DNA from: an uncultured Opitutia bacterium
GTDB taxonomy: Bacteria; Verrucomicrobiota; Verrucomicrobiia; Opitutales; UBA953
DNA: 64,000 nt
Assembly: GCA_903855995.1 (NCBI GenBank)
Contig: CAIOAN010000013.1
Location: 78,875 to 142,874 of the forward strand
Reading direction: 5' to 3'
Shown: in pieces, positions 19,756 through 61,666 of the stretch
Position numbering within the stretch: position 1 is the first letter of the stretch
How the letters are laid out: the number at the start of each line of letters is the position of its first letter
Notes under the pieces: generated by a model
Seen by the model: only the letters and a program-made list of their open reading frames with translations
Told to the model about the DNA's origin: nothing
Database searches by the model: none
Translations under genes and position numbers: made by a program

Positions 19756-20325
19756 TTACCTGCACCACCTAAGATTCGCTTCTAGGTGGTGCAGCCCTTT
19801 GGGGACATTACGCCAGCCTACCCGCCATGCATATGCATGGAAACCGACAACCATGTCAGCCACCTGTAACTGAGGACAGGCGTGCGATCTTTCCATACGG
19901 ACCTCCCGGACGCCCAAAGCGATTCTTATCTCCGAAGCGCGCAGCCGATCACGCTCGCCGTCGATGACAATCCTATCGGCTGCTTCGATGCGGTCGAAGG
20001 AGCCTAGACAAGAACGCATGACTTCCACCTCCGGTCGATAATTAGACCTTAGCACCACTCTCTGCTTATCCCAAATCGCCACTCGGTACGAACGGAGCAT
20101 CGGAGCCATGCTAGTCATGTAATCCATCCTGACGCCGATTGGCATCTTGGACCATTTGAACTCACCCCGCCAACCGAGACCTGCCCTCAGCCGTTCCTGC
20201 GCTGCGGCCAGACGCGCGGCTTCCGCTCCATCACGGCAACAAAGGATTCCCACGGCGAAATAGGACGAGCTGCCGGGCTCCATCGGCAGACCCGGATCGC
20301 CACTTTCATCACAGAATAACAGCAT
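19756..20325 (-). CDS. DUF3800-family protein
   Basis: 189 aa. N-terminal LLFCDESGD and C-terminal QLQVADMV, the hallmark ends of DUF3800. Confidence 0.65.
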   Translation of the reverse strand: MLLFCDESGDPGLPMEPGSSSYFAVGILCCRDGAEAARLAAAQERLRAGLGWRGEFKWSKMPIGVRMDYMTSMAPMLRSYRVAIWDKQRVVLRSNYRPEVEVMRSCLGSFDRIEAADRIVIDGERDRLRASEIRIALGVREVRMERSHACPQLQVADMVVGFHAYAWRVGWRNVPKGLHHLEANLRWCR

Positions 20326-20936: not shown

Positions 20937-22790
20937 ATGAGCGGTAACAAAAAACACTCGGGCAAGCGAACGCCTGACGAAATCCTGCGAGATGCCCGCA
21001 AGGAGGTTTCAAGAATCCTGTCGAAGGCCAGAAAAGCCTCGGCCGGTCCACCCCAGGCAAGCAGACCGAACCAGGAGCCTCGCTTCTTCCCTGGATGCAT
21101 ATTCGTGGTAATGTTATTTTGCGGGATTTTCTTGGGAGCCATGACATCGCCGAGGCTCCGGGACAAGCTAGCGAACTTCGCCAAAGATTTGGCGGGCCAA
21201 ACGGACGTTGGGACTAATCACGAGGTAGAAAAAATAGCCACACAGGGGGCTGCACCCGCCTTGGAAGCGGCCAACCAGCGTTCACCCAACGCGAGCTCGG
21301 TCGAGGCATACTTTCGCATGGGTAATGAATTATTCGCCTCCAGAATCATCACCAATGCCTCCACTCCGAAGAAGGCCCACACGCCTACGCCAGGCGAAGC
21401 TCCACACTACGGCCGTGGCAGTCTGATCGGCGTTATCCTTCGAAACGTTCGCAAGGGTGAACGCTACGATATTACAATCAGCGGCGACCGGTTCATCAAA
21501 GAATCCTCGGAAAGTATCTTGATTGAAAATGACGCACTGGTGGTCAATGCGCAACCCGCCCTTATTTACGATTATGAGGCAATCCGTAAGATCAATCAGA
21601 CCACAAGTTGCAACCTGACCTTTAAAGTGCGCCGAAGTGGCGAATTAGAATTTAAAAGCATCACAGCTACCTTGCAGCTCCATCAGATTAACGACTGCCC
21701 TCTTACCATGGGTGTGCGCAACCTACAGGCCGATGGCACGTTCAGCCACGTCCGTTCGAAAGATTTCCAGACGATAACAGGCTACGTAAATGAAAATCAC
21801 CCTTGGATTGATGCTCTCCTGCTGGAAGCGAGAGAAACCAATATTTGCGGTGAATTCGTAGGATACCAAAGCGGTACCGAGCAAGTATGGCCGCAGATAG
21901 ACGCAATCTGGAAAGCGTTAGAAAATCGCGGACTAGGTTATTCGAGCATAACGACTACCACCACCTCAACGCACCACGAATTCCAACATGTAAGATTCCT
22001 CGAGGATTCGTTGACCAACAAACAATCCAACTGCCTCGACGGTTCGGTACTCCTCGCATCAATACTGAGGAAAATCAGCCTAAACGTCAGCATCATGCTC
22101 GTCCCTGAACACGCCTATCTTATTGTCCACGACATGGATAATAAAAAGTTTCTTTACGCGATTGAGACAACGATGATTGGAAAAGCCGACCTGTATGCCG
22201 CCGTCAAGATGGCGACTGTCGATGAACCCTTCGCACTTTCAAAACTAGTGAATGACTCAAAAGATAAATACACGGGAGATGACTTCAGAATTATCAACAT
22301 TGCAAAGATGCGCGACGCAGGCACACAACCCATCTCCTTTGAAGGTTCGGCACAACCTCCCTCCATCCCAGTCTTCGCCACCCGCGATCAAATCGGAACT
22401 CCAGCTCAAATCGTCCGGCAACAGCGAATTATTTTAGCCCAAAAGATTCAGCAAAAAGTTAAAAGCCTTGTCGACCGCCTTGATTCGACCCGCGGTGGCA
22501 ATCCTTTCAACCTCAATGACCCCGGCTTCCAGATTGAGTCTTACGCATTGTTCTCGGAGATACGTCATCACCAAGGGGCATTCAATAAACTGCGCACCAC
22601 CCCTAGCCTAACACCCATCGGCATCGCACTTTCTGATCAACTATTATCAGAGCGCTACTCGAAGCACATTGCGACCCTACGCAACGTAACGCTCGATACG
22701 AATGACCAAATAAAGAAATCTGATATTTTACGCGCCGCCGACCTTGCCGATGCACTCTTCGGAATCGCATGCCTGCCGCTCGAGTATTGA
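20937..22790 (+). CDS. membrane-anchored transglutaminase-like (papain-fold) protein
   Basis: 617 aa with one N-terminal TM helix (FFPGCIFVVMLFCGIFLGA). Cys/His pair in SNCLDGSVLLASILRK ... VPEHAYLIV. Markedly AT-richer than its surroundings (one hand-counted 60-nt line gave 45% GC). Confidence 0.5.
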   Translation: MSGNKKHSGKRTPDEILRDARKEVSRILSKARKASAGPPQASRPNQEPRFFPGCIFVVMLFCGIFLGAMTSPRLRDKLANFAKDLAGQTDVGTNHEVEKIATQGAAPALEAANQRSPNASSVEAYFRMGNELFASRIITNASTPKKAHTPTPGEAPHYGRGSLIGVILRNVRKGERYDITISGDRFIKESSESILIENDALVVNAQPALIYDYEAIRKINQTTSCNLTFKVRRSGELEFKSITATLQLHQINDCPLTMGVRNLQADGTFSHVRSKDFQTITGYVNENHPWIDALLLEARETNICGEFVGYQSGTEQVWPQIDAIWKALENRGLGYSSITTTTTSTHHEFQHVRFLEDSLTNKQSNCLDGSVLLASILRKISLNVSIMLVPEHAYLIVHDMDNKKFLYAIETTMIGKADLYAAVKMATVDEPFALSKLVNDSKDKYTGDDFRIINIAKMRDAGTQPISFEGSAQPPSIPVFATRDQIGTPAQIVRQQRIILAQKIQQKVKSLVDRLDSTRGGNPFNLNDPGFQIESYALFSEIRHHQGAFNKLRTTPSLTPIGIALSDQLLSERYSKHIATLRNVTLDTNDQIKKSDILRAADLADALFGIACLPLEY

Positions 22791-23319: not shown

Positions 23320-24471
23320 GGGGTCAGGCCGTTACCGACTCTGATTGATACTAAATCTGCCTGAAAGGCCTGAGTTTGGTATCAGTCATCAGGAGTAACG
23401 GCCTGACCCCTTGGATTAGGGCATAGCCCCTGAAGGGTAACCTGTTTGGATTTACCGACGTATTCATGGCAACAGGAGTCATGCCCCGATCAAAGCGAAC
23501 GCTCTCCAACCAAGGCCTCTATCATGTCTATAACCGAGCGGAGCTCGGCCAGCCCATCTTCGAGTCAGACGGCGCCAAGGCCGTCTTCCTTGAGACCATC
23601 CTCCAGGTGAGCGAGACGCTGGCTTGGGAACTCCATGCCTATGCGATCATGACCAACCATTTCCATTTGGCGTTAACGACGCCCCAGGCGGATATCGAAA
23701 TAGGCATGCATGCCCTCCTTTCGGCCTTCGCGAACAAGCACCGTACCTTCCGAGGGTCGATCGGACACGTCTTCCAATCCCGTTACAGAGCAGACCACTA
23801 CCCTCTCGGCCAGCTTGCCGGAGACAAAGTCGACTATGTCCACTACAACCCAGTCGCGGCAGGAATCGTATCCCTGGATGAACTTCGGCATTACCCATGG
23901 AACAGTTACCGACTGGTCTGGCAGCCCGCACTTCGCGGCCGACTGACGATCGGGCCGATGCTGGGAGCATTGTACGGACTCAAAGACGATCCTGACGGCT
24001 GGCACGCATACGAAGAAAGACTGCGCCTGCGAATGGCATCGGCCGAACGTAGCCTCACCGATGACGAGCTTTTCGGTTTGGCGCGTAAGACCAAAGCCGG
24101 GGCACTGCCCGAAGCGGTCGGTCTACCCGTACGTGCCGGGATGACATCCGACGGCCACCGACAGGAACGTGCCGCCGAACAAGAGCGTATCCTAGGCGAA
24201 GCGCTCGCCGCCGCCGGTATCCTGCCGGAGGATCTACCTGGCCTCGGCAAGAGTGCCGGCGTTAAGGTCGCGGTAGCGCAGGCCATCCAGGCGCGTACCT
24301 TGGCGAGTTCGGCATGGTTGGCCAAGGCACTGCACCTCGGCAGCGCCGCCAACGTGCGCAAACTTCTACGCCAAGCCAAGGGGTCAGGCCGTTACTGAAT
24401 CTGCCTGATACCAAATCCGCACTATATCTATGCGTTTAGTATCAGTACCTGACGAGTAACGGCCTGACCCC
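23320..24471 (+). mobile_element. RAYT/IS200-like unit: Y1 transposase gene bracketed by two copies of a ~91-nt hairpin element
   Basis: Hairpin copies at 23320-23410 and 24380-24471, in the same orientation. Each has perfect 16-nt arms ggggtcaggccgttac / gtaacggcctgacccc. The second copy overlaps the last codons of the gene. Confidence 0.7.
23466..24398 (+). CDS. REP-associated tyrosine transposase (RAYT) / IS200-like Y1 transposase with C-terminal HTH-like tail
   Basis: 310 aa. Motifs LYHVYNRA, HUH motif in AYAIMTNHFHLAL, catalytic Tyr context VFQSRY. Confidence 0.8.
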   Translation: MATGVMPRSKRTLSNQGLYHVYNRAELGQPIFESDGAKAVFLETILQVSETLAWELHAYAIMTNHFHLALTTPQADIEIGMHALLSAFANKHRTFRGSIGHVFQSRYRADHYPLGQLAGDKVDYVHYNPVAAGIVSLDELRHYPWNSYRLVWQPALRGRLTIGPMLGALYGLKDDPDGWHAYEERLRLRMASAERSLTDDELFGLARKTKAGALPEAVGLPVRAGMTSDGHRQERAAEQERILGEALAAAGILPEDLPGLGKSAGVKVAVAQAIQARTLASSAWLAKALHLGSAANVRKLLRQAKGSGRY

Positions 24472-24517: not shown

Positions 24518-25273
24518 CTATTCAAAAAGCATGTCACCAAGGCCACCTGCAGGCGATTCGGTAGTTTCATCATAACCGGGAATGCTAAAGCCACTCTCGT
24601 CATCCCCGTCTTCGGTCCAGCGAAGGTTACGTTCTAAGTCCTTATCAACCTCGGGAACATCAGGAAGATCTTTGAGTCGATCATAGGGCTCTGCGTCGTC
24701 GTCGGCATTATCCTGAGCATCATCCTGCGAGCCGTCTTCCCGACACGCGGCACTCGCTTCAAGCCATTCACCCGTATGATCTATCACATCATGCGCTTCA
24801 TCGGGCTCAAAGGGACCAACAAGTTCGTCATCACGACCGTCAGTGTAGACCTTGCGGGTAAACTTTAATTCAAGGAAATCGTCATAGACATCATGCGTGC
24901 GAATATAGACCGTATCCAGAGTGACAAACGTCGCGCCAACCGAATCAAGTAACGCGAGTTCGTATGATTCCGGGAAAAGCTGAAGAGTTCGAGGCAGGTT
25001 GTCGAAAAGGCTGTTCGAGAAATAGAGATACTGGTTAGCATCCATTCCAAGGTCGGTATCGCTATCATCGAGTTCCCGGCTGCCGAAAAAAGTCCTTAAT
25101 CTTTGAATATCGACGAACCGCCGGGTCTTCCGCTGGGACACGTCGCTCGCATCAAAGAATTCCTGCCAAACCTCCTCATCAGCCCAGTCCCACACTTCTT
25201 CTTCGCACACGGCCTCTACCAGAGCCTTTTTCTGCTCTGGGTAACTGAGAGACATCCAACGCTCAGGGGTCAT
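24518..25273 (-). CDS. strongly acidic hypothetical protein
   Basis: 251 aa, very D/E-rich throughout (e.g. DGSQDDAQDNADDDAEPYD). Divergent from the DUF262 gene with a 60-nt spacer. Confidence 0.55.
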   Translation of the reverse strand: MTPERWMSLSYPEQKKALVEAVCEEEVWDWADEEVWQEFFDASDVSQRKTRRFVDIQRLRTFFGSRELDDSDTDLGMDANQYLYFSNSLFDNLPRTLQLFPESYELALLDSVGATFVTLDTVYIRTHDVYDDFLELKFTRKVYTDGRDDELVGPFEPDEAHDVIDHTGEWLEASAACREDGSQDDAQDNADDDAEPYDRLKDLPDVPEVDKDLERNLRWTEDGDDESGFSIPGYDETTESPAGGLGDMLFE

Positions 25274-25333: not shown

Positions 25334-27139
25334 ATGCCCCTCGACGCCAAAGTCATCAGCCTCGAACAACTCCTGCTCAAGTACCCTTGCCTGGACGTGC
25401 CGAACTACCAACGCACCTTCAAATGGACGGAGGAAAAGATCACGACCACCTTTCAGGACATCCTTAACGGCCTGGACTTCACCGGCAGCGGGGACAATCG
25501 AGGACACTTCCTCGGCTCCGTGGTCATCTGCAAAGACCCTACCAACAATAAAATCGACCTCGTGGATGGCCAGCAGCGCCTGACCACGCTCACCATCATG
25601 CTGTGGAGCCTGGCAAAACTTGCCGATAAACAAACTCTTGAGAAAGCCAGTCGGACCATCCTACAAGCCGACCGACTGAATCCACGCATCCTGCACAAAG
25701 CGGGCAATAAAGAGCTCTGCAGCGATCGGGACGCTTATCGCGAAGTGGCCACGAAACTCGAAGTGAACCATAGTCCCGAAGCCGGCGACGCTGATGACGA
25801 GGGCGTCATCCAACGAAACGCCAGCTGGCATGCTGCGTTAGTAGACACTCCGATCTATAAGGCTGGCGCCTGCCTGGATGATCTAGCCGCGAGAGCCTGC
25901 GACGCCTATCTGCGCGACACGAATACCACCTCTCGCAGTAAAGCTGCGTCCGAAATCTACGCGCGACTCTCCGAGGGCGTCAAACTCATCATCATCGAGA
26001 CAGACCAGAGAAAGGAAGGCATGCGCGTCTTTGCGTCCATTAATGCAGGAGGAACTCCGCTACAAACGTGGGAACTCATCATGAGCGCATTTTACACTCA
26101 CGGACCGGACCCTAAGCAACAATCGCTCGTTGAACTGACCTTCGAGAGCGACCGCCATTCGATATCCAAGATCTTAGGCAACGACAACGAAGACTCTACG
26201 GTGAACAACGGATTGCGCACGTTCTGGCTGTCCACCCGTCGATTCGCCCGAATGGACGATCTTTTTAACGAATTCAACGAGACCTTAGCCAAGAGCACGG
26301 ATCCAAAGAAGACCCACTCTGACCTACTCAAACAAATCCTATTCAGCGTGCCGCTCCTCAAGGCATTTGATACCGCACCAAACACAGTCGAGAATGCAGT
26401 CGCTGAGAAGACTTACTCTTTCGCGAGTCTTTACCCGTTAACCGTCGCGATGAAGGATAAACTCGCCCGGCCGATCCTATTGAGCGTATTGCTTCGATTG
26501 AACAAGGACCCGAAGGCCGCCGACGACGCGCTCCGTCGCGTAAGTTTCGCCCTCGAACGAGCCCGTATGAAGCTCATCATCTGCAAATACGGCGCGAATT
26601 TCATCGAGAAGCCTTACTCACAGCTCGCAGTTGAGATCTACAAAGGGAAACACTCCGAAGACCCCGAGGTAATCGAGGAGAAGGTCTACCAATTCCTGCG
26701 GGACATCAAGGGATTCCCCGCCCAGGATGAGTTTGAGGCCGCATTCCAACGCTACGCACCTTCCGGCAGGGACCAAAAACTACCCAAACTGATCGCTATC
26801 CGCCTCCAGGACGCGCTGCGAAACCCCGATAAGATCCCCTTCCTCTATCTGAGCACCCCGAAGAAATCCGAAGACTCTTTCAAACTCGTGAAAGGTCTGA
26901 GTTTTGACGCCGACGCTAGTGACTATGAGGCCAAAAAGCTTGGCTTTAAAAGCTCCGCCAACCTTCAGGCGATCGGCGGCTCACTAGGCAACCTCTTCAT
27001 GGCCGACCCTGAAACCATGGAAATCGATCATCGCATCGAATTCAATGGAAAGACCGAAGTCGCCGACCTAGGAGAAGATGCGATGACGGAAAGACGCGAT
27101 ATGCTGGCAGATCTCGCCGCTCGCATCTGGCACTTTTGA
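25334..27139 (+). CDS. DUF262 (ParB-like nuclease/NTPase) domain protein, GmrSD/SspE-related N-terminus
   Basis: 601 aa. Motifs VPNYQRTFKW and LVDGQQRLTTL. The C-terminus keeps only GSLGNLFMAD. I cannot find the EH..P part of a DUF1524 HNH-like motif. Confidence 0.8.
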   Translation: MPLDAKVISLEQLLLKYPCLDVPNYQRTFKWTEEKITTTFQDILNGLDFTGSGDNRGHFLGSVVICKDPTNNKIDLVDGQQRLTTLTIMLWSLAKLADKQTLEKASRTILQADRLNPRILHKAGNKELCSDRDAYREVATKLEVNHSPEAGDADDEGVIQRNASWHAALVDTPIYKAGACLDDLAARACDAYLRDTNTTSRSKAASEIYARLSEGVKLIIIETDQRKEGMRVFASINAGGTPLQTWELIMSAFYTHGPDPKQQSLVELTFESDRHSISKILGNDNEDSTVNNGLRTFWLSTRRFARMDDLFNEFNETLAKSTDPKKTHSDLLKQILFSVPLLKAFDTAPNTVENAVAEKTYSFASLYPLTVAMKDKLARPILLSVLLRLNKDPKAADDALRRVSFALERARMKLIICKYGANFIEKPYSQLAVEIYKGKHSEDPEVIEEKVYQFLRDIKGFPAQDEFEAAFQRYAPSGRDQKLPKLIAIRLQDALRNPDKIPFLYLSTPKKSEDSFKLVKGLSFDADASDYEAKKLGFKSSANLQAIGGSLGNLFMADPETMEIDHRIEFNGKTEVADLGEDAMTERRDMLADLAARIWHF

Positions 27140-27144
27140 GGAAG

Positions 27145-28845
27145 TCAGCCAATCATCATCTTGGAGATCGATTCCATCGCGGCCTGGTCGGCCATGATTG
27201 TAAGACTCACCTTAGGTCGAGTCGCTGCGACATAGAACAGAGGGTCGTCCTTCTCGATCCGGCCTTTGACGTTGTAGATGATGACTGCAGCCGCCTCCAT
27301 ACCTTTGAATTTCCTGACTGTGGTATAGCGAATGACGTTCTTCCTGCCAGAGGTTGTCCAACCAAAGGCCGCCAAGCCTGCAATCTTCTTTGCCCCGGCA
27401 AGCGTTTCGTTGGCTCCTGAGTAATCCAGAATCACTATGTCTTCTGCCTTAAAACCCTTTTTGATCAAACCGCTGACAGCCGCCTCAAGTTCGGCGAAGC
27501 GACCGATGTCGTCGGAAGACTTATAAAGATGCGACTTAACCACATGCCCAGGGATATCAGAAGGTATCGCGGGATTACTGGTAGCGTTATTGGCAAACTC
27601 AGCGATGTGCGAGCTATTGCGCACGTTACGCTTCAAGCGGTAAGCAACTTGGCTCGGGGGTTCAAAGGCACCCTCAGCATATTTGACGAGCGATTGACCG
27701 CGATCTTCGAACCACACCCACTCTCCGGCAGCCCATCCGCCTTTGAGTAAACACCCTAGCGCGGCACATAAGACGGGTTGAGCACGAAGGTCCTGCCCCT
27801 CGTCGATGATCAGCGAGTCGAATGCTCCTTCAGGATTGGCCACCAACCAGGATTGGAGATCACGGAGACAGCCGGCATGGTCCCCTGGGTTGGCCTTAAG
27901 TACAGGGGAATACTCCCGCAGCAGCGAATGCACCGTACCGATGAAAGATCGACCTGGCTTCATCTTTAACATGTTCATCGCCGACAAATGATCAGCCAAA
28001 TGGACATTAAAACAGACAAGCGCCACACGGTGGTTCTCGTCTTGTGACAACAGGGAATGAAGACGCGTTTCGGCGATCAAGGTCTTCCCAGTCCCCGCAG
28101 GGCCGTGAACCAAGAGCCGGGGAATCCCCTCCATACCCCAGAGCGCATCACCTTGTTCGGTCGTCAGACGGACCAACTCGCCGTCGGTAGCCTGGATTGC
28201 CGATGTCATCGAGGGAATCGAGTTAAAGTTAGGCCGGAAGCAATCAACCAGAGCCGCATATTCAGACTGACTTAGGCCAACCGGGGCTGACCGACCCTTA
28301 CCTACGGCCAATTCCTCATCCTTTCTCAGAATAAAATCTGCCATTTCTAGCAGTGCGACTTTAGTACCAGTTTCGTCGATTCTTGCTCGGTCGCAAATCA
28401 TCTCCATAGGCCATGAGTTAGGCGAAACTTGACCATGCGGAATAATGCAATCTGGGAAAAAACATCCCCAGCCGTGAGCTACCTTATTCAGCAGCTCTTC
28501 AGCCCCAGGTCGAGTTAGCGCCAACTTTTTCAGGGCATGCCACGCGCTTTCGGCCTGCTGGTAAGGAGATTCCTTCTTACGATTAATTTCACCGTGGCGG
28601 TTCTTGAAGCACCACTCCCCTGCCTCGGCATAGACTTCGCCTCCTTTGACCTCGATCACCATGATGACTCTGGGAGATATGAGCAAGAAGTCCGCCTCAC
28701 CAGAACGCTTGTAAGCATGCTGATGAACATAGACGGAGTGCAGCACAGCCCATTCATCTGAGAGCCCTTTAAGGACTCGATAAAGGGTACACTCTGCTTC
28801 GCTCTTCTTGAAGTCAGGGGGGATATCCGGGAAGAATTTTGCCAT
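27145..28845 (-). CDS. NERD-domain + SF1 (UvrD/AAA_30-like) helicase
   Basis: 566 aa. NERD core SGEADFLLISPRVIMVIEVKGG, Walker A VHGPAGTGKT, Walker B LIIDEGQDL, C-terminal FKGMEAAAVIIYNV ... YVAATRPK. Confidence 0.8.
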   Translation of the reverse strand: MAKFFPDIPPDFKKSEAECTLYRVLKGLSDEWAVLHSVYVHQHAYKRSGEADFLLISPRVIMVIEVKGGEVYAEAGEWCFKNRHGEINRKKESPYQQAESAWHALKKLALTRPGAEELLNKVAHGWGCFFPDCIIPHGQVSPNSWPMEMICDRARIDETGTKVALLEMADFILRKDEELAVGKGRSAPVGLSQSEYAALVDCFRPNFNSIPSMTSAIQATDGELVRLTTEQGDALWGMEGIPRLLVHGPAGTGKTLIAETRLHSLLSQDENHRVALVCFNVHLADHLSAMNMLKMKPGRSFIGTVHSLLREYSPVLKANPGDHAGCLRDLQSWLVANPEGAFDSLIIDEGQDLRAQPVLCAALGCLLKGGWAAGEWVWFEDRGQSLVKYAEGAFEPPSQVAYRLKRNVRNSSHIAEFANNATSNPAIPSDIPGHVVKSHLYKSSDDIGRFAELEAAVSGLIKKGFKAEDIVILDYSGANETLAGAKKIAGLAAFGWTTSGRKNVIRYTTVRKFKGMEAAAVIIYNVKGRIEKDDPLFYVAATRPKVSLTIMADQAAMESISKMMIG

Positions 28846-28854
28846 AAAATGAAA

Positions 28855-30603
28855 TCAGGAGATAAAGCCTTCGATACCCGCGCCTCCGGTAAGGAGGGTG
28901 CGATCTAGTAAGGCGTTGAATAGTTCGCAGGATGTTTCGGGCAGCAGGCCGCAACAATGACAGGCGGCTAGATTCATACCCTCGGTACCCTGCCCTTGCT
29001 CAGGCGAAGTCTCCGAGCATAGCGGGTCGTTGGAACACCACTTGGCGGCCTCCAGAGCCTTGTCGAGCAGGCCTGCCAGGCGTTCGGGGCTGCCCTGACG
29101 GACTAAGCCACCGAGACTGCCTTCGGAGTCTGAGGATGAGGTGTAAATCAAGATGCCTAAGCGCTGCTGACCCTCCTCAGCACCCTTCAGGCAGTATAGG
29201 CGCTCACGAATGGATGAAGCAGAATAGCCGGACTCCATCGCGAGCTCGTTGATCAGCATATGAGACAAGGTATGAAGCACGATCACCTGCGGCGAAGCCG
29301 GCAACTCTGTTCGCTGAATGATCCGGCTATCCTTGGCCTTGTGCAGGACATGCTTAAGACGGGTTTCCAACGCTGCCTTATTCTTGGCAACCCAATCGTT
29401 CATATGCTGTGACTTGAACTCCAGGAAGATTCCTTCGCCGCGAACCTCATTGGCAGGTAGCCATTTTTTCCCATCCGCCTCAAGCTTCAGTTCGCGGATA
29501 AGATTATCATCAAGAGGATATTCGATTCGACTGAAACCTACCTGGGCTGTGACCATGCGAAGTCGCTTAACCAAAGTAACCGACTTAAGCCAATGGGCAT
29601 GCTGTTCAGGGACGACGTCAATCTTCTCAGCCATGAATTGGTCACGGAACGTGCCACTCTGAGGCGGGCGAGAAAGCGCCGCAAATTCGTCGATCTTGAT
29701 GTCAATGTCTGCCTCCTGGCCGGAAACCTCGGCACGCTTCTTTTGAAGTGCTTCGGTTAGTTCAGCGGGAGTAAGATTATGCTTAGGAGCAAGGTGAGTT
29801 ACATTAAGGCGAAAAAGGTCATCGGCGGGATCCAGATCCTTAAACATCCCCCAAAGGGCGTTCGCCACCATGTGAACATGCCCAGAATACGGCGGGATGG
29901 AGACGGCGCTCTCCCGGATCGGGAAGTAAACATTCGTAGCACCACGCTGGAGCACCTTAACAGTCTGACCACATTCCTCCTTCTCTCCCGCCACCCTCCA
30001 TGGAGTACCCCCCTGGCAGCCGTTCATGTCGACGCTCTTTAGAGCTGCTGGCATGAGGACATCGCCCAGATCCCGGGAAGACCCACATTGACAGACTACG
30101 CGCATATCCGCGAAGGACGTGGAATTATTCGTCGAAACCAAGGTAAGTTTACCATTCCCCTCCGGGGTGCTACACGGCCGATCTGTGTGCGCCCAACGGA
30201 ACCACGGAAAATCATCGATGTGTCCCGCCGGACAGGCGACTACAATACGCGAGGGGAGTAACTGCTGGCCGGCACAATTCCGTCCAGGGCATTTCTTAAC
30301 GCTCTGAATGGGGCCAAAGTCAGCAAGCTTAGCCAGGGCGTTGCATGATGGGCAGTAAGCCCAAGATGGGAAGCGGCGGGCCGGTACCGAGGCGGAGGTG
30401 ACAAACTTGTCATCAGCAGGGACTGGAGTCAGCAGCCGGTCCACCTTGAGGCGACGCACTAGTCGCGGCTCTTCAACCTCCATGAGCTTAGAGGAATCCC
30501 AACTGCTTTCGGAAATCATCAGCGACATCCCCGGCGCGTCAAAAATCGCACCGATACCGAAGGTCTCGGTCAGTTGCGGACGGCGAATCTTAATGGTGCT
30601 CAT
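28855..30603 (-). CDS. DUF1998-domain protein (DrmB-like)
   Basis: Start at the Met at 30603 (MSTIKIRRPQLTETFG). Zinc-ribbon Cys pairs CPSCN...CPGRNC, HIDDFPW, and the C-terminal DUF1998 signature ACHCCGLLPETSCELFNALLDRTLL. Confidence 0.75.
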   Translation of the reverse strand: MSTIKIRRPQLTETFGIGAIFDAPGMSLMISESSWDSSKLMEVEEPRLVRRLKVDRLLTPVPADDKFVTSASVPARRFPSWAYCPSCNALAKLADFGPIQSVKKCPGRNCAGQQLLPSRIVVACPAGHIDDFPWFRWAHTDRPCSTPEGNGKLTLVSTNNSTSFADMRVVCQCGSSRDLGDVLMPAALKSVDMNGCQGGTPWRVAGEKEECGQTVKVLQRGATNVYFPIRESAVSIPPYSGHVHMVANALWGMFKDLDPADDLFRLNVTHLAPKHNLTPAELTEALQKKRAEVSGQEADIDIKIDEFAALSRPPQSGTFRDQFMAEKIDVVPEQHAHWLKSVTLVKRLRMVTAQVGFSRIEYPLDDNLIRELKLEADGKKWLPANEVRGEGIFLEFKSQHMNDWVAKNKAALETRLKHVLHKAKDSRIIQRTELPASPQVIVLHTLSHMLINELAMESGYSASSIRERLYCLKGAEEGQQRLGILIYTSSSDSEGSLGGLVRQGSPERLAGLLDKALEAAKWCSNDPLCSETSPEQGQGTEGMNLAACHCCGLLPETSCELFNALLDRTLLTGGAGIEGFIS

Positions 30604-30611
30604 CTGGGTAA

Positions 30612-33600
30612 TTATCTGGAAAGGACTGAGATACCACACATCGCATCGACGTTGCGCATCTGGTTCATCGTGGGGAATTCGTTAGTGGGCTCGGTAAGTA
30701 ATGCGGTCTGCGCCTCAAAAGACACCAAAAGGTTACCGGCCGCGTCAGCGTTTCCAGAATACCAAAGACCTGCGGTGTACTCGGCCACCTTACCCGCCCA
30801 ACGATCAATGATCGAATCCAGATGCCGCTCGATGTCCTCGGCTTCCGAGGGGTCCTGGCGCGTGAAGCGGTCAAGCAGGTAAGCCCTGATGGCTTGAACC
30901 TCAGGCATACTAGGATCGAAGGCCCCCGCCCCCTTAGGTCCGGCAAGGGCTCTAACAGTATGGCGGGCGATAATGACGAAGGCTGCATGGAGTGCACGCT
31001 CACGAGCACGAGAGGCAAAAGGAGTTACACTGGTGGCCTCGACCTCGGCGTAGAAGCTTCCGTGATAGCGCTGAAAATGCTCGTAGAATGATCGATCTCG
31101 GGAGCGGTTCGGACTGTAGAGCATGAAAACGAGGCCGGGATACTTACGGCCTACTCGGCTGGAAGCTTGAATATACTCGGCCGTGGTCTTGGGCTGTCCG
31201 AGCATGAACATCAGGCTGAGTCGTGGGATATCTAGGCCAACCGAGATCATGTTCGAGCACAGCACCGAGTCGACGGCCGTGCCAGCATCGAGACTGTTGC
31301 CCAATTGGGAGCGCGTGGAGACGAGACCCTGTTCATCGACTCGGCTGGTAAGTTCAAGAGGGCTAGCGGGATTGCGGGCGCCCTTTGAACTGGGAAGGCT
31401 GCCCAAGGCCTGAATCAAGGAGCGCACATCGTCCTGCACCCTCACGATAGCACCGCCAAGGTCACGCAAGCTACAGAAGTAGCCGACCGTGGTCCAATAG
31501 GGATCCTTTACCGCAGGAGCAGCGTCAAGTTCCTTGGCGCCCTGTAACATCACGCCTGCCGACTTGATCATGATACCCTGGGTCGTCTTGTTAGCACCGA
31601 ACATACCCACGTAACGTCGCGATTTTGTCACACCTGCAGCTCCGCTCAGTTCACGAGCGAAGAAGGAGTCGCGCGAGTCGATATAGGGAGGAGGAAACTG
31701 GATGACTTCACGGTCAAACAGATTGATGACTTGGCGGCCCGCATTTCGGATGGTCGCGGTTGACGCGATCACCTTCGGCCGGACTCCGTCAGCGGACTCG
31801 CATAGCTTATCGATGGCGGCCTCATAGAGGCCTGAGATTGTGCCCAGAGGTCCGCTCACCAGATGCAACTCATCTTGGATCACCAGATCAGGCTTCATGT
31901 TCGCACCGTCGGTAGCGAACAAGTTTCCCGCTTCCTGCCTGAACGCGAGTTGAGCAAACTTATCAAGCGTACCGATGATCAATGATGGCCGAGCCGCGAA
32001 CACCTCGTCATCCGCGACATGGACTGGAATATCGTTTTTGAAATCGCACGCCTGATTCGGACAGGGCAAGGCGATACGCTTTAAACGCATCTCAACACGG
32101 TAATTGGCTGGCGTGATCGTCGTGTTACACCAAGGACAAGACACCAGCTTACAAGGACTGCCCTTGCCGTCCATGGGCATCCCGCGCTGGACGTTATTCA
32201 AAGCCTTCCTGGCTTCGTCGAAATTATTTGGGGTCGAACCACCGCCCACATACATACCGATGCTGATCTTGGGGGTTCCTCGAAGTCGTGCGTGAGTATT
32301 TCGCACATGTTCAGCAGCACAGATCATGCGTGAAGCACGGACAAACTGATCTACCGTAAGAAGGCGAAGCGTGTAACGCATCATCACGGCGACACCGCCG
32401 GCAGAAGCCGCCCCGCCAAGCGGCTTAAGGCGACGATAGAATAGTGTGAATGCGGTCAGAAGAAGGTAGGCCTCCGTCTTGCCGCCGCCCGTCGGGAACC
32501 ACAGCAAGTCACACAGTTTACGATCCGAACCTTGGCGGTTCGTAATACTCGTCAGACATTGCAGGACAAACGCGAGCTGGAACGGACGCCAATTGCATTC
32601 GGCAACCGGCTTAGCCTGGGTCTCGTCGTAGGGCACGCCTGCAGCCTTGTCTCGCTCCCATTCCGAGCGTCGCATGACCTCAAGCATCACCTTATTCGCC
32701 AAGGTGAAGGCGAGAAGTGCGTCCGCATCGCCGCGTAGGGCTTCAATTCCAGCCGAGATCCGAGCAACTGAAGACGTGCAGCGGGCATACTGCGCATCCG
32801 CGACATCGCGGAACTCTTCCGGGACCCCACCGCTCCGAGTAGCACGCGTCTCCTCGATCCATGCGGCATACTTAGCGGGAATCTCGGAAAGCAAAGCGAG
32901 CGCAGCAACCGTGTCATCGGCGGCCAACACACCCATGTTAAGATTGGCCGTGCGATCCGTAGGCGCCACGAGCGGCAAGACGTCCGCATACGGCAGGAAC
33001 TCTGCCCTAATCTTGCTTGGGGCGAGCTCGCCGGGCAGCCAGGATGCCGCGCAGCCATGGCCGATGGCGTATTCCTTGCTGTGTAGGTGAAGCAGCAGGG
33101 CTTCCTTACGGTCGGCATCCATGCCGGTAATCCCGCGAGAGGGACGTTCCACGAAGACCCCAGCTGAAAGGGAAACCTCCATGTTCACCTGGAAGAAGGA
33201 CAGCCTCGTCACATTGACGTGATTACCAGAGTCGCTGAAAAGGCTATTCACCAATGAAACCGTGACAGTGCGTGTGCCGTCTACCGGCTCTCGGACTAAT
33301 ACGCGCAGGACGGCATCGGAGGGCATTCCATCCTTTTGCAGGTATGACTCGCTTCCAGCCGACCCACAGGGCACGTCGAAGGAAAATGCCATAGGCTCTC
33401 GCGTCCAGGAGCAGTCACGACCATCGGCAGAGGATTCCCCTTGCCGATAACGGCCGAAGCCACCCGCGACCTTGATCATCAGGATATCGGCAGGCACCGT
33501 GAACGTGATACCACAGCTAGATTGCTTGCGGATCTTATTGGAGGCCTCACGAGCGGCCCCATCACCGGACCCTTCGTCGGGGCCATCATACTTCTCACCA

Positions 33601-33806
33601 TGCCCGGTCTCGGTCACCTCGCTCGCATCGGGCGGCAGGTCGTCCGGAAGTTGCGGGTAGAGCGTACCCGTGAGGTATTCATTGCTCGGCTTGAAACGAC
33701 GGGTGAGCGAGATGATCTCGGCTTCGCCTTCGGCTGGACCCACCAGGTGCTTACGGAAATAGGCAAGAAGTTCGTCCCGACATTCGGAGGCGTTCTGTAG
33801 AGGCAT
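30612..33806 (-). CDS. large SF2 DEAD/DEAH-type helicase with ~430-aa unknown N-terminal region (DrmA-like)
   Basis: 1064 aa. Motif I LWFPTGGGKTEAYL, motif II VIQDELHLVSGPLG, motif VI QASSRVGR. Immediately upstream of the DUF1998 gene. Confidence 0.75.
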   Translation of the reverse strand: MPLQNASECRDELLAYFRKHLVGPAEGEAEIISLTRRFKPSNEYLTGTLYPQLPDDLPPDASEVTETGHGEKYDGPDEGSGDGAAREASNKIRKQSSCGITFTVPADILMIKVAGGFGRYRQGESSADGRDCSWTREPMAFSFDVPCGSAGSESYLQKDGMPSDAVLRVLVREPVDGTRTVTVSLVNSLFSDSGNHVNVTRLSFFQVNMEVSLSAGVFVERPSRGITGMDADRKEALLLHLHSKEYAIGHGCAASWLPGELAPSKIRAEFLPYADVLPLVAPTDRTANLNMGVLAADDTVAALALLSEIPAKYAAWIEETRATRSGGVPEEFRDVADAQYARCTSSVARISAGIEALRGDADALLAFTLANKVMLEVMRRSEWERDKAAGVPYDETQAKPVAECNWRPFQLAFVLQCLTSITNRQGSDRKLCDLLWFPTGGGKTEAYLLLTAFTLFYRRLKPLGGAASAGGVAVMMRYTLRLLTVDQFVRASRMICAAEHVRNTHARLRGTPKISIGMYVGGGSTPNNFDEARKALNNVQRGMPMDGKGSPCKLVSCPWCNTTITPANYRVEMRLKRIALPCPNQACDFKNDIPVHVADDEVFAARPSLIIGTLDKFAQLAFRQEAGNLFATDGANMKPDLVIQDELHLVSGPLGTISGLYEAAIDKLCESADGVRPKVIASTATIRNAGRQVINLFDREVIQFPPPYIDSRDSFFARELSGAAGVTKSRRYVGMFGANKTTQGIMIKSAGVMLQGAKELDAAPAVKDPYWTTVGYFCSLRDLGGAIVRVQDDVRSLIQALGSLPSSKGARNPASPLELTSRVDEQGLVSTRSQLGNSLDAGTAVDSVLCSNMISVGLDIPRLSLMFMLGQPKTTAEYIQASSRVGRKYPGLVFMLYSPNRSRDRSFYEHFQRYHGSFYAEVEATSVTPFASRARERALHAAFVIIARHTVRALAGPKGAGAFDPSMPEVQAIRAYLLDRFTRQDPSEAEDIERHLDSIIDRWAGKVAEYTAGLWYSGNADAAGNLLVSFEAQTALLTEPTNEFPTMNQMRNVDAMCGISVLSR

Positions 33807-33837
33807 TTATAAAATAAATAGAAAACGTACTACCAAC

Positions 33838-35670
33838 TCAAGGCCAGACCGCCTTGGCTAAGCCTTCGATCTCGACGTAACACCAGAGCAGACTGGCAGC
33901 CACTTCGGGCGGAAGGCCTTCCATCGATTCACAGTCACCAGGAGTGGTCGTATAGATACCCCGCACCCAGCAGCCCTCCAGTCGGACCGGGAGAGGGAAA
34001 TCCTTGCCCCACCCCTGGATTGATTGACGGGTCGCCTGGAGATCCCGGGAAAACCACGACGACATCTCCCCCACCTTTAGCCCCGATGAGCGATGAATCA
34101 TCGAATAGATAGCGGCCGCGCCCTCTTCCCTAGACGGTCCGAGCACTAGATCGACGATTTCCCCACGATTGCAGAGTTCCGTCAACTTTGACTGTGCTGA
34201 AGCAGCGGCTTCCAGGGAGGGGAACCTCACGAATGACACCGGATCGACATCACCCTGAACCCCGACCTCGAAGGCCTTGATCCCCATACCGCTGCCCATA
34301 TACATGCACTCTGCCCATCGATCGCTCTTCTTGGATTTACGAAGCAAAGGGGCTACCCCGCCATCTATTCTGAAATTTCTGACCTTAGCCCGTGACATAC
34401 CTACGAACCGCATACGCTGATAATACCCAGGGGTAGGCTCTTCCTGGCCCTTCCATGGCACGTAATCGACGTACGCGACCTCATCGAACTCACGGCCCTT
34501 CGAACGATGGATAGTAGAAAAAACGATCGGGTTGTAAGACCTGTCGGGGGCGGGAAGCGGCACAAACTGTTGGGCACGATTCAGGGCAATCACGATATCC
34601 CGGACCTTCGGATTATTCTTCCCACTAAAACAAGCGCGCCTCAAAGCAAGATGGGCGTCAGCAGCGGAAACGCCGGAAGGAAGCCGTAAGCTCAGCTCCC
34701 CTTCCAGGAGTTCCAGGTTGATTTCTGTAGCCTGAGGTTTCCCGAATAACAGCCGCCCCACCCAGGCAGGATGGGCCCAGTCACGCTCCCCTCGGGCGAT
34801 GACGACGGCTTCGCCGGCCAGGATAGATCGGCTAGCGGAAAGTAAGATCTGACCATTATTCGGACAGACCACGGCGCGGGATTGGCCGCGATCAGGGGTC
34901 GGCCAGGAAAGAGCCGCCAACGAGCCGCCAGCCTGGGATTGCGCCAGGGCGGAGTCCAAACCCGCCTTGGCTGCTTCGTGCTCCCCATCGACCAAAGAAG
35001 CCCAAGGGAGCGTGCAGAGCTCGACTAAGCTCGGGTCGCTTGAGCGGTAGTAGTTGTTAAGTCTATGAATCTGGACTGCCGAAGGTAGCTCGCGACACTC
35101 GAAAACGTTCAGCATTTCAAGCGAAGTGGTCAGGGCATCGTTGTCTAGCAGGCTGAAGTCATAGATCGCCTGAGCTGAATCTGCGAAAACCGTGAATCCA
35201 GCCTGAGGCATCTGGCCGAACAGTGTCGTCATCATGTCCGCCCGAGGGCCGATGATGTCCTGTGCTTCGTCGACTAATACGTGCTTATACTGAGTCACAC
35301 CGCAAGCATCGGGATCGTCTTCAAGGTCACGAATAGCGCGGATGACACGCTCATCATAGGTGCCTGTGTTTTCACCACTTGCCTGCTGAAGCACCAAGCT
35401 CGCAAAAGAATCGAGGGTGCGGATCGTGACCGCCGCGGCATTCGACTGTTCGTCCAGTAGCCCGATACGGCGCTTCAGTTCGTCCCGGGCGGCCCGGGAG
35501 AACGAAAGCACCAGCAACTCGCCTGGCAAGCACTGCCCCGAGTCGACGAGTTGGGCAATACGTGAGACCAGGACGTGGGTCTTCCCCCGGCCAGGACCTG
35601 CCTGCACGACGATATTGGCGTCAATCGGGGCATCGACGACCGCTTGCTGCTCGGAGTCTAGGGGCATCAT
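33838..35670 (-). CDS. UvrD/Rep-type SF1 helicase with ~170-aa unknown C-terminal domain
   Basis: 610 aa. Motifs VQAGPGRGKTHVL, HVLVDEAQD, TIHRSKGREFD, FVGMSRAK. Confidence 0.8.
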   Translation of the reverse strand: MMPLDSEQQAVVDAPIDANIVVQAGPGRGKTHVLVSRIAQLVDSGQCLPGELLVLSFSRAARDELKRRIGLLDEQSNAAAVTIRTLDSFASLVLQQASGENTGTYDERVIRAIRDLEDDPDACGVTQYKHVLVDEAQDIIGPRADMMTTLFGQMPQAGFTVFADSAQAIYDFSLLDNDALTTSLEMLNVFECRELPSAVQIHRLNNYYRSSDPSLVELCTLPWASLVDGEHEAAKAGLDSALAQSQAGGSLAALSWPTPDRGQSRAVVCPNNGQILLSASRSILAGEAVVIARGERDWAHPAWVGRLLFGKPQATEINLELLEGELSLRLPSGVSAADAHLALRRACFSGKNNPKVRDIVIALNRAQQFVPLPAPDRSYNPIVFSTIHRSKGREFDEVAYVDYVPWKGQEEPTPGYYQRMRFVGMSRAKVRNFRIDGGVAPLLRKSKKSDRWAECMYMGSGMGIKAFEVGVQGDVDPVSFVRFPSLEAAASAQSKLTELCNRGEIVDLVLGPSREEGAAAIYSMIHRSSGLKVGEMSSWFSRDLQATRQSIQGWGKDFPLPVRLEGCWVRGIYTTTPGDCESMEGLPPEVAASLLWCYVEIEGLAKAVWP

Positions 35671-35780
35671 CCCACTTCATACTTTTCTTAAGAACGCACA
35701 AGGGGGAAGTAACTGGCCAGTGGAACTCGCAGGAATAAGGCAATCCATGAGCTTGACGGCAGCTATCCAGGTGGCAGCTT

Positions 35781-37181
35781 ATGGGCATGCCCAAAACCTT
35801 CATCGACCTCTTCGCCGGCATCGGCGGGTTCCATTGGGCGTTGAAGGGCCTCGGCTACGACTGCCTGCTAGCCGTCGAGAAAGACGAGGCTGCCCAAGAG
35901 ATTTACGGGAGGAACTTCAAAGAAAAAATCCGAAAAGGTAAGTCGACCCTCAATAAACTCATCGGAGACATTCGTTCACTTACAAGGAGCAACCCAGAGG
36001 ACGAAGACACAGAAATCATGCCCCACAAAATCGCCGCTAGATTTAAAGATGAGTTTAAAATCGAAGTAGGAGATGTCGGAGTAATCTGCGGAGGCTTCCC
36101 CTGCCAGCCCTTCTCTAAATCTGGGGCCCAAAAGGGCGACAAGGATGCAACCCGAGGAACGCTTTTCCATGACATCTTACTACTTACGGAAGCCCTTAAG
36201 CCTGAATACCTAATCCTGGAGAATGTGCGCAACTTTGCCGGAGACAATCACAAGCACACACTAGAAATCATCGTCAGCAGAATCGAGACCTTAGGTTATG
36301 ACATAGAGAAGAAACCAATCACACTATCACCCCACCAGCTTCCTGAAAACAAGGGAAGCCCGCAAGTCCGAGACCGGGTCTTCATCCTAGCTCGCAAGAA
36401 AGAACTGAAGTCAGGTGCTGCGCCAATCGAAGTCGCTAAACACATCGATTTCATAAAAAAAGAGGATAAGCCAAACTGGGACGCCAGTTCAATCTTAGGA
36501 GCACGCGCAAGCGATAAGTATAAACTGAGCAAAGCAGAGAAATCCTGGCTGAGAATCTGGGAGGAGTTCCTCAAACTGACCCACGACATCGAGCTGCCAG
36601 GACACCCTATATGGTCCGATGTTTTTGGCAATCCTCCCGTGATCACTGATGAGATGCCAGAGTGGGAAAGAAATTTCCTCAAAGGTAATCACAAGTTATA
36701 CCTGAAACTCACCAAGGACCCTAAACGCCGCAAAGCAATCGGGGGCTGGCTAGCCAAACTCCACAAAGAAAGGAAGAATTCCGAAGGAGAATTTGTCAGA
36801 ATCATTCCGACCTCACGCAGAAAATTCGAGTGGCAGGCAAACCGCGCCTTCAAAGACGGCGAAAAAAGGACCTTGAAGAGACTTCTGATCCAGTTCCGGC
36901 CAAGCGGAATTCGCGTTAAGCCTGCGACCCACTACCCTGCCCTGGTCGCTATGACTCAAACCACTATTGTTGGCCCATTGGCGGGATCAAAAAAACCCAG
37001 GCCAGACTATAGATACATAACGCCCAAGGAGGCGGCCAAGCTCCAAGGCATGTACCATATTAAATTTGGACGACAGGCTGATACCTTGAGTTACAAACAG
37101 TTAGGAAACGCGGTGAATGTCAAAGTCATCAAATACCTGGCGGAGAGGCTTACGGGCGCAGTTCCCTGCGAAACTCCATAG
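35781..37181 (+). CDS. DNA (cytosine-5)-methyltransferase
   Basis: 466 aa. Motif I FIDLFAGIGGF, motif IV GGFPCQPFS, motif VI LILENVRNF, motif X QLGNAV. Confidence 0.9.
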   Translation: MGMPKTFIDLFAGIGGFHWALKGLGYDCLLAVEKDEAAQEIYGRNFKEKIRKGKSTLNKLIGDIRSLTRSNPEDEDTEIMPHKIAARFKDEFKIEVGDVGVICGGFPCQPFSKSGAQKGDKDATRGTLFHDILLLTEALKPEYLILENVRNFAGDNHKHTLEIIVSRIETLGYDIEKKPITLSPHQLPENKGSPQVRDRVFILARKKELKSGAAPIEVAKHIDFIKKEDKPNWDASSILGARASDKYKLSKAEKSWLRIWEEFLKLTHDIELPGHPIWSDVFGNPPVITDEMPEWERNFLKGNHKLYLKLTKDPKRRKAIGGWLAKLHKERKNSEGEFVRIIPTSRRKFEWQANRAFKDGEKRTLKRLLIQFRPSGIRVKPATHYPALVAMTQTTIVGPLAGSKKPRPDYRYITPKEAAKLQGMYHIKFGRQADTLSYKQLGNAVNVKVIKYLAERLTGAVPCETP

Positions 37182-37791
37182 CCTGGATGCCACGGAGGTG
37201 CAGGATTTTGTGGCAAGAAGGGCACACGGCGACGAACTCCTTGGCCGACGGCAAACGGCTAACAGACTTAAGGTAGGCCATGGTACAATGTGCCTCGAGT
37301 ACGGGGTGGCCTAACCGCACCCCAGGGCTATCGCCGCAGCAGTAGCAGGCGGCATCAATCCCAAGATCAGGCCCCGCGGGAGGCTCGCGCTCGGTCCTCA
37401 GATGTCCGGCCAAGCCAGCACGGCCTAGCTGAGAGTTGGGCAAGTCCGCCCCTTCCTGGACCACCACTGCCCGAAAAGAGTCAAACCTAGCCAAGATTGC
37501 ATCAAACCAGCGATTCGTGACACGGGCCCCACGGGCAGTCATGGTGCGTTCGTCAAAAGGAATGGCCGTATAATTACAGATCAGCTGGCATAAGCCAACC
37601 TTGTCCCGGATGCCGGCCAGCTCCCCGGGGACTCCGACGGCCTGGGCCACTTCCCGGAAGAACTCCTTGGTCACCTGTCCACCCCGGGAGACATGGCCCG
37701 CTTTGACGGTGATGCCGAGCAAGTCAGCCAGGACAACCAGTCGGGTGCGGGGGCGTTCTTTCCTCATTCTCGTAGAACCACCCTGCCCCAT
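37150..37791 (-). CDS. HNH-type endonuclease-like protein (C-terminal Cys4/HNH module), N-terminal domain unknown
   Basis: 213 aa. Motifs CYCCG ... LEAHC ... CPSCHKILH. GC visibly higher than either neighbour (hand-counted line 67% against 42% in the methylase). Its 3' end overlaps the methylase 3' end by 32 nt, convergent. Confidence 0.5.
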   Translation of the reverse strand: MGQGGSTRMRKERPRTRLVVLADLLGITVKAGHVSRGGQVTKEFFREVAQAVGVPGELAGIRDKVGLCQLICNYTAIPFDERTMTARGARVTNRWFDAILARFDSFRAVVVQEGADLPNSQLGRAGLAGHLRTEREPPAGPDLGIDAACYCCGDSPGVRLGHPVLEAHCTMAYLKSVSRLPSAKEFVAVCPSCHKILHLRGIQAMEFRRELRP

Positions 37792-43966: not shown

Positions 43967-43975
43967 CTGAGCAAT

Positions 43976-44001
43976 CCATCTAGGAAGAATCAACTAGATG
44001 G
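43976..44001. promoter_or_regulatory. inverted repeat overlapping the start codon of the 540-aa gene
   Basis: ccatctag-N10-ctagatgg. The ATG at 43998 lies inside the right arm. Confidence 0.35.
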
Positions 44002-45620: not shown

Positions 45621-45654
45621 TGGACATTATAGACATGAGTGATTGATTTAAAAA

Positions 45655-51787: not shown

Positions 51788-51791
51788 GCCC

Positions 51792-55091: not shown

Positions 55092-55095
55092 TGTC

Positions 55096-61655: not shown

Positions 61656-61666
61656 TCTAAAAGGGG

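Follow-up and report, generated by a model that had tools for sequence, protein, structure and literature searches.

Two superfamily 1 helicases flank DrmA and DrmB in a conserved gene cassette of a probable DISARM-family defence class

The window analysed here, a 64,000-nucleotide stretch of DNA from an uncultured Opitutia bacterium (GenBank assembly GCA_903855995.1, contig CAIOAN010000013.1, positions 78,875 to 142,874), carries four adjacent minus-strand genes with a DISARM-type DrmA and DrmB pair at their centre. In order, they encode a 610-aa UvrD-like superfamily 1A (SF1A) helicase (33838-35670); a 1064-aa 'short' form of DrmA, the superfamily 2 DISARM helicase of the YprA family (30612-33806); a 582-aa DrmB, the OB-CON-DUF1998 zinc-binding partner of DrmA (28855-30603); and a 566-aa fusion of a NERD domain, a predicted PD-(D/E)xK nuclease, with a superfamily 1 (SF1) helicase (27145-28845). 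A divergent intergenic region of 110 nt (35671-35780) separates the first of these genes from a plus-strand gene for a 466-aa C5 methylase, Dcm1 (35781-37181). An earlier note on this DNA had reported the four co-directional open reading frames (ORFs), the gaps of 31, 8 and 9 nt between them, the opposing plus-strand ORF and the length of the divergent spacer, and the ORF list agreed on each point. The ORF encoding DrmB spans 28855-30639; the ATG at 30603 was taken as the start because the resulting length fits that of homologs (577-582 aa) and because it lies 8 nt past the DrmA stop codon. A promoter and terminator consensus scan gave no sigma-70 consensus match in the 110-nt spacer, and promoter-like sites across the operon were below chance expectation. 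The four minus-strand genes are referred to as the cassette; a neighbouring GmrSD gene and a 251-aa gene were counted as context.

Profile searches and alignments to the chains of the solved Serratia structure supported the core that the earlier note had proposed, a DrmA-type helicase with a DUF1998 protein. PADLOC results, here and below, are matches of single proteins to PADLOC profile hidden Markov models. DrmA matched the PADLOC DrmA profile (5.1e-216) and aligned to Serratia DrmA (7s9v_A; E 1.8e-136) over query residues 19-1005, with the GGGKT and DELH motifs kept and with the region aligned to the Serratia trigger-loop residues 176-232 retained as an acidic, Gly/Pro-rich stretch. Its closest NCBIfam model was DISARM_DrmAS, the 'short DrmA' equivalog, at 889 bits, slightly below the cutoff of 950. 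DrmB matched PADLOC DrmB (2.9e-77), Pfam MZB/DUF1998 (4.5e-9) and NCBIfam DrmB_fam (482 bits; cutoff 240), and its full-length alignment to Serratia DrmB (7s9v_B; E 4.2e-77) showed conserved Cys clusters. Judged by sequence, the 1064-aa and 582-aa proteins are true homologs of DrmA and DrmB of the solved Serratia DISARM. The DISARM core was present both as DrmA and as a split DrmB directly after it; this split of helicase and DUF1998 protein is a consistent trait of DISARM within the YprA family, and in DISARM the gene after DrmB is DrmC (PMC12458937).

In the window, the gene after DrmB was found to encode the NERD-helicase instead of DrmC. No phospholipase D (PLD), DrmE or SNF2 protein was detected by Pfam or PADLOC in the annotated ORFs of 16-58 kb, and no N6-methylase match was obtained among the island ORFs scanned over the same interval; neither DrmD (SNF2) nor DrmMI (N6-adenine methylase) of class 1 was therefore found in these ORFs. 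The check for a hidden DrmC, DrmE or DrmD covered 23 further island and flank ORFs (Pfam, PADLOC) and a six-frame scan for the HKD motif. The loose form of this motif, HxKx4D, occurred in none of the 121 window ORFs of at least 100 aa, and the strict form occurred in none of the 69 cassette-bearing loci scanned. The DrmE_C profile did detect two related loci (L088 and L093), which indicates that the model works. The absence of DrmC, DrmE and DrmD, as the earlier note had it, was confirmed by these scans.

The UvrD-like protein was assigned by Pfam to UvrD-helicase (3.1e-27) and AAA_19, and it matched many PADLOC GajB profiles (2.6e-23). Its SF1A motifs were all invariant in the family: Walker A (residues 24-31), DEAQD (134-138), motif III (162-172), HRxKGxE (388-394) and VGxSRA (423-428). 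An AlphaFold2 model (mean predicted local distance difference test, pLDDT, 92.8) had UvrD, PcrA and Rep as its top Foldseek matches (E 4e-17). The helicase core occupies residues 1 to approximately 430 and is followed by a family-specific, beta-rich C-terminal domain (residues ~430-610; window 33841-34383), which gave a pLDDT of 92.2 when modelled alone. This domain had no Pfam family and no significant neighbour in the PDB (Foldseek, best E 0.37); since there was no significant structural match, a nuclease assignment was considered and could not be made. Residues R451, D474, Q493, G503, P561, W596 and G603 of the domain were invariant even in relatives of ~30% identity. The family comprised approximately 20 clusters at 45-96% identity, below which identity fell to ~30%, and no relatives were found in the viral contigs scanned.

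The NERD-helicase consists of an N-terminal NERD domain (Pfam NERD, 9.6e-12) followed by an SF1 helicase (AAA_19, UvrD_C_2), and it matched the PADLOC model for the reverse transcriptase (RT)-associated NERD-helicase (9.9e-32). D52, E65-x-K67, GPAGTGKT (248-255), DEGQD (348-352) and YVAxTR (538-543) were invariant in 17 NERD-helicases, down to 26% identity. A sequence search against PDB chains gave no match. The family showed the same close-then-distant structure as the UvrD-like family. As far as can be read from the sequences, the catalytic motifs are intact in all four cassette proteins.

The gene order proved to be conserved in both close and distant relatives. Four close members of the UvrD-like family were looked up (69, 60, 49 and 47% identity), and the order UvrD-like helicase, DrmA, DrmB, NERD-helicase was kept in all four. 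The distant survey, which used one genome per GTDB species (185,579 species representatives), yielded 80 loci, the closest of which was only ~30% identical to the UvrD-like protein over its full length. All four genes, in the same order and with the same spacing, were present in 45 of the 80, at identities of 34-40% for DrmA, 30-36% for DrmB and 23-27% for the NERD-helicase; another 19 carried the first three genes only, three of these being cut off by a contig end. Hosts of the four-gene loci belong to at least four phyla and include Alpha-, Beta- and Gammaproteobacteria (Pseudomonadota), Smithella, Clostridium and Acetomicrobium, and the three-gene loci come from, among others, a Spirochaetia and an Opitutaceae metagenome-assembled genome (MAG). 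Annotated examples of the cassette showed 4-nt overlaps or gaps of 10-28 nt between genes. One RefSeq example, with generic product names only, is carried by a mobilizable plasmid of Azospirillum ramasamyi, where DarT and a Tn3 transposase are its neighbours. The close family (at least 45% identity to the window) was absent from the 185,579 GTDB species representatives, and the sublineage to which the cassette of the window belongs is known only from metagenome assemblies and MAGs, one member being labelled 'freshwater metagenome'.

The reverse test, starting from the NERD-helicase, gave a similar picture: six of seven distant homologs (26-29% identity) adjoined DrmA. Two of them stood in the full four-gene order (L086 and L092), and a third followed DrmA and DrmB in a locus whose preceding gene was cut off at the contig end (L087). 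Other loci read Dcm-NERD helicase-DrmA-DrmB (L089) or Dcm-DrmE-NERD helicase-DrmA-DrmB (L093), with no PLD gene called in the flanks of either; the locus from Lihuaxuella thermophila (L088) carried DrmE_C, an SF1 helicase and DrmA before stopping at the contig edge. In these last three variants a NERD-type helicase lies upstream of DrmA; they suggest that DISARM systems have repeatedly taken a NERD-helicase in place of DrmC. The neighbourhoods of UvrD-like and NERD-helicase homologs thus showed strong reciprocal linkage to DrmA/DrmB operons, and the adjacency in the window, for which accident had been a conceivable explanation, is not accidental. The description of the locus in the earlier note as a 'rewired' DISARM overstated its singularity, since the class is conserved and widespread.

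The four proteins also co-evolve. Their distance matrices were correlated in all six pairwise comparisons (Spearman 0.81-0.94; 44-48 loci). The metagenomic relative L004 resembled the window closely in its flanks (protein identity of 95% for GmrSD, 89% for Dcm1, 91% for a small ORF and 81% for a MORC-like ATPase), whereas all four of its cassette proteins were just 47-59% identical to those of the window. In a 300-nt sliding profile, nucleotide identity was 0.82-0.93 up to approximately position 27100, at the NERD-helicase stop codon, 0.46-0.74 across the four genes, and again 0.82-0.92 from approximately 35800, at the start of Dcm1. The left-hand breakpoint of the exchange was placed at ~27100 and the right-hand breakpoint in the 110-nt divergent spacer, across which identity climbed from 0.58-0.70 to 0.82. 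Since the drop in identity was confined to the four genes, a resident cassette had been replaced by a different whole-cassette allele at gene-exact borders. The four genes are inherited and exchanged as one unit, and the two flanking SF1 helicases are fixed partners of the DrmAB core.

These comparative data bear directly on whether an orphan DrmAB, a Gabija-like GajB helicase and a stand-alone NERD-helicase might have come together by chance in a crowded island. The island is extremely rich in defence genes, the UvrD-like protein matches many GajB models and a second NERD-helicase is encoded independently at 55096-56814, all of which would fit such a juxtaposition. However, the arrangement recurs, in order and spacing, in at least 45 unrelated genomes and is therefore far beyond chance; its annotated examples are tightly packed, its proteins co-evolve and were cleanly exchanged as a unit in L004, and no GajA-like nuclease was found in the island proteins scanned. 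Identities of 24-40% also exclude one recently spread mobile element. Chance juxtaposition is hardly credible and may be regarded as effectively refuted.

The relationship of the cassette to the adjacent methylase was looser. Dcm1 matched Pfam C-5 DNA_methylase (1.4e-53); its best PADLOC model was the Druantia-type DruM (5.2e-100), and DrmMII reached only 5.5e-34. Neighbours were counted within ~10 kb around the cassette in 64 distant GTDB loci. A C5 methylase was the commonest neighbour, being found in 35 of the 64 loci and within 1 kb in 23 of these. It was located upstream on the cassette strand in seven loci (with Vsr between where identifiable), convergent and 19-27 nt from the NERD-helicase in five, and divergent upstream, as in the window, in seven. 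An alternative partner was a divergent SNF2 helicase (25 distant loci) together with a ~990-aa protein (22 distant loci). The ~990-aa protein (e.g. L007:6271-9237, minus strand) never occurred without a ~990-aa SNF2 helicase that distantly resembles DpdE, BrxH or DrmD. The two genes diverge from the cassette and were found mainly in Rhodobacterales and Sphingomonadales; when considered as a methylase, the ~990-aa protein had no Pfam, PADLOC or PDB match. The proposal of the earlier note that a C5 methylase would make this a class 2 DISARM was only partly supported: a C5 methylase is adjacent, though loosely linked and closer to DruM than to DrmMII, but the required DrmC and DrmE are absent. 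Because the link is loose and non-specific, the cassette can plug in beside different methylase-based restriction modules.

On this evidence the four genes probably form one conserved, self-contained DISARM-family defence cassette, of a class distinct from the two already described. Several observations weigh against that reading. About one quarter of the UvrD-DrmA-DrmB loci lack the NERD-helicase and some NERD-helicase loci lack the UvrD-like gene, so that neither accessory helicase is universal. Common vertical descent could account for part of the co-evolution signal. Defence, nuclease activity and complex formation are each predicted from homology and genomic context. As regards the methylase, an EcoRII-type endonuclease was also present near Dcm in 10 loci, 13 of the 64 loci had neither a C5 methylase nor the SNF2 pair within ~10 kb, and Dcm distances did not track those of the cassette (0.10-0.24 in 29 loci, where the cassette pairs gave 0.81-0.92). 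The cassette and its presumed methylase can evolve as separable modules.

The lack of co-evolution and the 13 loci with neither partner would be expected if the system acted independently of methylation, sensing DNA structure or free ends, and if the proximity of C5 methylases reflected only the clustering of defence genes in islands. The exchange of the cassette beneath an unchanged methylase in L004 and the Azospirillum plasmid copy, which has no C5 methylase annotated nearby, point the same way; furthermore, the lack of methylation target sites does not spare phages from restriction by the Serratia DISARM, which picks its substrates by DNA structure (PMC9142583). Such independence is harder to reconcile with the C5 methylase being by far the commonest neighbour, frequently within 1 kb, with its position upstream on the cassette strand in seven loci, and with the related variants L089 and L093, in which Dcm lies directly in the operon. 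The class 1 DrmA also bears an EVE-like domain, of a kind that reads modified bases (PMC12458937 supplement). A methylation-independent system is accordingly a possible alternative, although a rather unlikely one.

If the four genes do form a DISARM-family defence cassette, a mechanism can be proposed by analogy. The DrmA-DrmB heterodimer would serve as sensor and motor, loading on single-stranded or 5'-overhang DNA of the invader and being freed from autoinhibition on DNA loading, as in the Serratia DISARM. The NERD-SF1 helicase, in the usual place of DrmC after DrmB, would be the DNA-cutting effector (PD-(D/E)xK) with its own translocating motor, and the UvrD-like SF1A helicase may be a second motor or adaptor that acts through its unique C-terminal domain. 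As a conjecture, both SF1 proteins could form a dual-motor nuclease, loosely like AddAB, AdnAB or RecBCD. Self-protection would probably be provided by 5-methylcytosine from the neighbouring C5 methylase, and the cassette would not be bound to one methylase. Taken further, and more tentatively, the cassette might be a third widespread DISARM class with its nuclease built in, in which the DrmAB sensor is hard-wired to a two-motor SF1 effector (the UvrD-like protein with its new-fold C-terminal domain and the NERD nuclease-helicase); it would then be a methylase-indifferent plug-in cassette that docks by different C5-methylase systems and is swapped by recombination at exact borders.

A DrmAB class encoded with an intact predicted PD-(D/E)xK nuclease on its own helicase motor would offer a concrete, testable DISARM effector, and it could lend itself to the study of what happens once DrmAB has been activated. 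Replacement of the cassette at gene-exact breakpoints bears on how defence islands diversify. Loci of this kind would escape the current DISARM definitions of type I and type II, and their RefSeq gene names are generic, so that the class is probably under-counted in defence-system censuses.

The genomic setting is also relevant to function. The cassette is located in a low-GC stretch (~0.53 versus 0.62) from approximately 19 to 58 kb. One alternative is that the cassette serves DNA repair, in the manner of MrfAB/YprAB, and not defence: the YprA family, which includes DrmA, has a second main branch that is linked to repair (PMC12458937), and UvrD-type helicases are classic repair enzymes. However, only the defence branch has DrmA and DrmB as separate proteins (PMC12458937), and the loci are found in low-GC islands beside restriction-modification (RM), McrBC and GmrSD genes, often next to integrases. 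One copy is located on a mobilizable plasmid beside DarT and Tn3, the distribution is patchy, and the close family is absent from the GTDB species representatives. A repair role is therefore very unlikely.

Convergent with the NERD-helicase gene is a plus-strand gene for a GmrSD/DUF262 type IV restriction enzyme (25334-27139; Pfam GmrSD_N 1.1e-27, PADLOC HEC-06), beyond which lies a conserved 251-aa minus-strand gene with no family match (24518-25273). The GmrSD gene and a small flanking gene held their position beside the cassette in all close relatives; the 251-aa protein was 23-67% identical in L001-L005, and the remaining locus had a 310-aa gene there. On the other side, the strand opposite to Dcm1 and the MORC-like gene carries a 213-aa ORF (37150-37791, minus strand) that extends over the 3' end of Dcm1. 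This ORF was 53-91% identical and in the same position in L002-L005, was a called gene in a MAG and was absent from L001; it had no Pfam, PADLOC or NCBIfam match.

At least six modules for restriction or defence are crowded into the part of the island from 25 to 57 kb. A type II RM pair, consisting of a second C5 methylase and an R.HinP1I-like endonuclease, is followed by McrB-like and McrC genes (42719-48698, plus strand). Further left are plus-strand genes for a 617-aa protein with no family match (20937-22790) and a 310-aa protein with a weak match to the IS200-like Y1 transposase (23466-24398; E 2.9e-4, below the Pfam cutoff). The island ORFs scanned did not include an integrase. Minus-strand DUF3800 genes bracket the island (19756-20325 and 58662-59261); a duplication marking its borders was rejected, as the two are 29% identical over 59 aa only. 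A tRNA-Met gene is located at 61665-61737 (minus strand), and the left flank of the island is an aryl-polyene-like lipid biosynthesis cluster.

The island also contains a second trio of plus-strand genes (48833-56814), which encode a PD-(D/E)XK protein of 984 aa, a UvrD helicase of 1140 aa and a NERD-SF1 helicase of 572 aa (55096-56814). This second NERD-helicase was 26% identical to that of the cassette, with every catalytic residue kept, and PADLOC has no model for the 984-aa protein. The trio may be a separate unnamed system and an ancestral two-helicase pair. In Microbacterium (L094), the seventh of the distant NERD-helicase homologs (27% identical) is similarly paired with a UvrD-PDDEXK helicase and lacks DrmAB. 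The recurrence of such pairs without DrmAB hints, speculatively, that the two SF1 proteins worked together before DrmAB was added.

When the cassette was compared with known systems, no paper was found that describes or names the four-gene architecture in the full-text literature searched, which left out most subscription journals; this bears out the view of the earlier note that it was not known as described. A 2025 survey of YprA-family helicases (Bell et al. 2025 preprint, PMC12458937) names ARMADA, BRIGADE and TALON. Membership of all three was rejected because none has a split DrmA/DrmB with a UvrD and a NERD-helicase, and NERD or UvrD proteins were not tied to the DISARM branch in the survey text and text supplements.

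ARMADA type II (ArmA-D) shares with the cassette a YprA-family helicase, an essential UvrD/GajB-like SF1 helicase, a methylase and several helicases per operon, and it has been shown experimentally to provide anti-phage defence in which the infected cell is not killed (PMC12458937). In contrast to the cassette, ARMADA has its YprA helicase as a single fusion, which contains a BrxA-like insert and ends in a Vsr nuclease. This helicase is accompanied by a BrxHII-like SNF2 helicase and a PglX-like methylase, the UvrD-like protein of the system begins with a RelE-like region, and neither a NERD-helicase nor a split DrmA/DrmB is present. No BrxHII or PglX match was obtained among the island proteins scanned with PADLOC. 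In one other locus, on the Tsukamurella tyrosinosolvens plasmid NZ_LR134452.1 (L091), the UvrD-like query matched a pair of neighbouring UvrD-type helicase genes; upstream of them are encoded a large methylase subunit, a DEAD-box helicase and a 1836-aa protein with a zinc-binding domain. This looks like an ARMADA-like locus, and it shows the recurrence of UvrD-type partners with other YprA-family systems.

TALON resembles the cassette in the association of a YprA-family helicase with a NERD-type PD-(D/E)xK nuclease (PMC12458937). It differs in its fused, ARMADA-like YprA protein, its TPR-CSD protein, its TATA-binding proteins (TBPs) and its largely Chloroflexota distribution, and the description of its NERD protein, an endonuclease, mentions no fusion to a helicase. 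No TPR-CSD protein or TBP was detected in the Pfam scans of the window proteins, and of the TALON components only the NERD domain is shared. With Gabija and with AddAB, AdnAB and RecBCD, the cassette shares a UvrD-type SF1 helicase coupled to a nuclease that, in those systems, acts at DNA ends; its UvrD-like protein matches GajB profiles and structurally resembles UvrD, PcrA and AdnB. Unlike those systems, the cassette lacks an OLD-family GajA (no match in the island by PADLOC), and its predicted nuclease is on the second helicase, not on the UvrD-like protein.

The closest relatives are the DISARM systems themselves, for which class definitions were taken from PADLOC (PMC9252829) and later papers. 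In the PADLOC scheme, type I consists of DrmA, B, C, D and MI, whereas type II has DrmA, B, C, E and MII (PMC9252829); the locus fits neither. Compared with class 1, as represented by Serratia sp. SCBI (7S9V, 7S9W), DrmA and DrmB align over nearly their full length, the ATPase motifs, zinc-binding cysteines and trigger-loop-aligned region are kept, and approximately 25 distant cassette loci carry a divergent SNF2 helicase distantly like DrmD, DpdE or BrxH; however, the window lacks the SNF2 DrmD, DrmMI and DrmC, and its DrmA is ~260 residues shorter. Compared with class 2 (Ofir et al. 2018), the cassette has neither the PLD nuclease DrmC nor DrmE, it places a UvrD-like SF1A helicase before DrmA and a NERD-SF1 helicase after DrmB, and the methylase beside it resembles DruM more than DrmMII and is inherited separately. 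In common with class 2, it has a split DrmA followed by DrmB, a 'short'-type DrmA, an adjacent C5 methylase and a defence-island setting, and intermediate operons such as L093 link the two.

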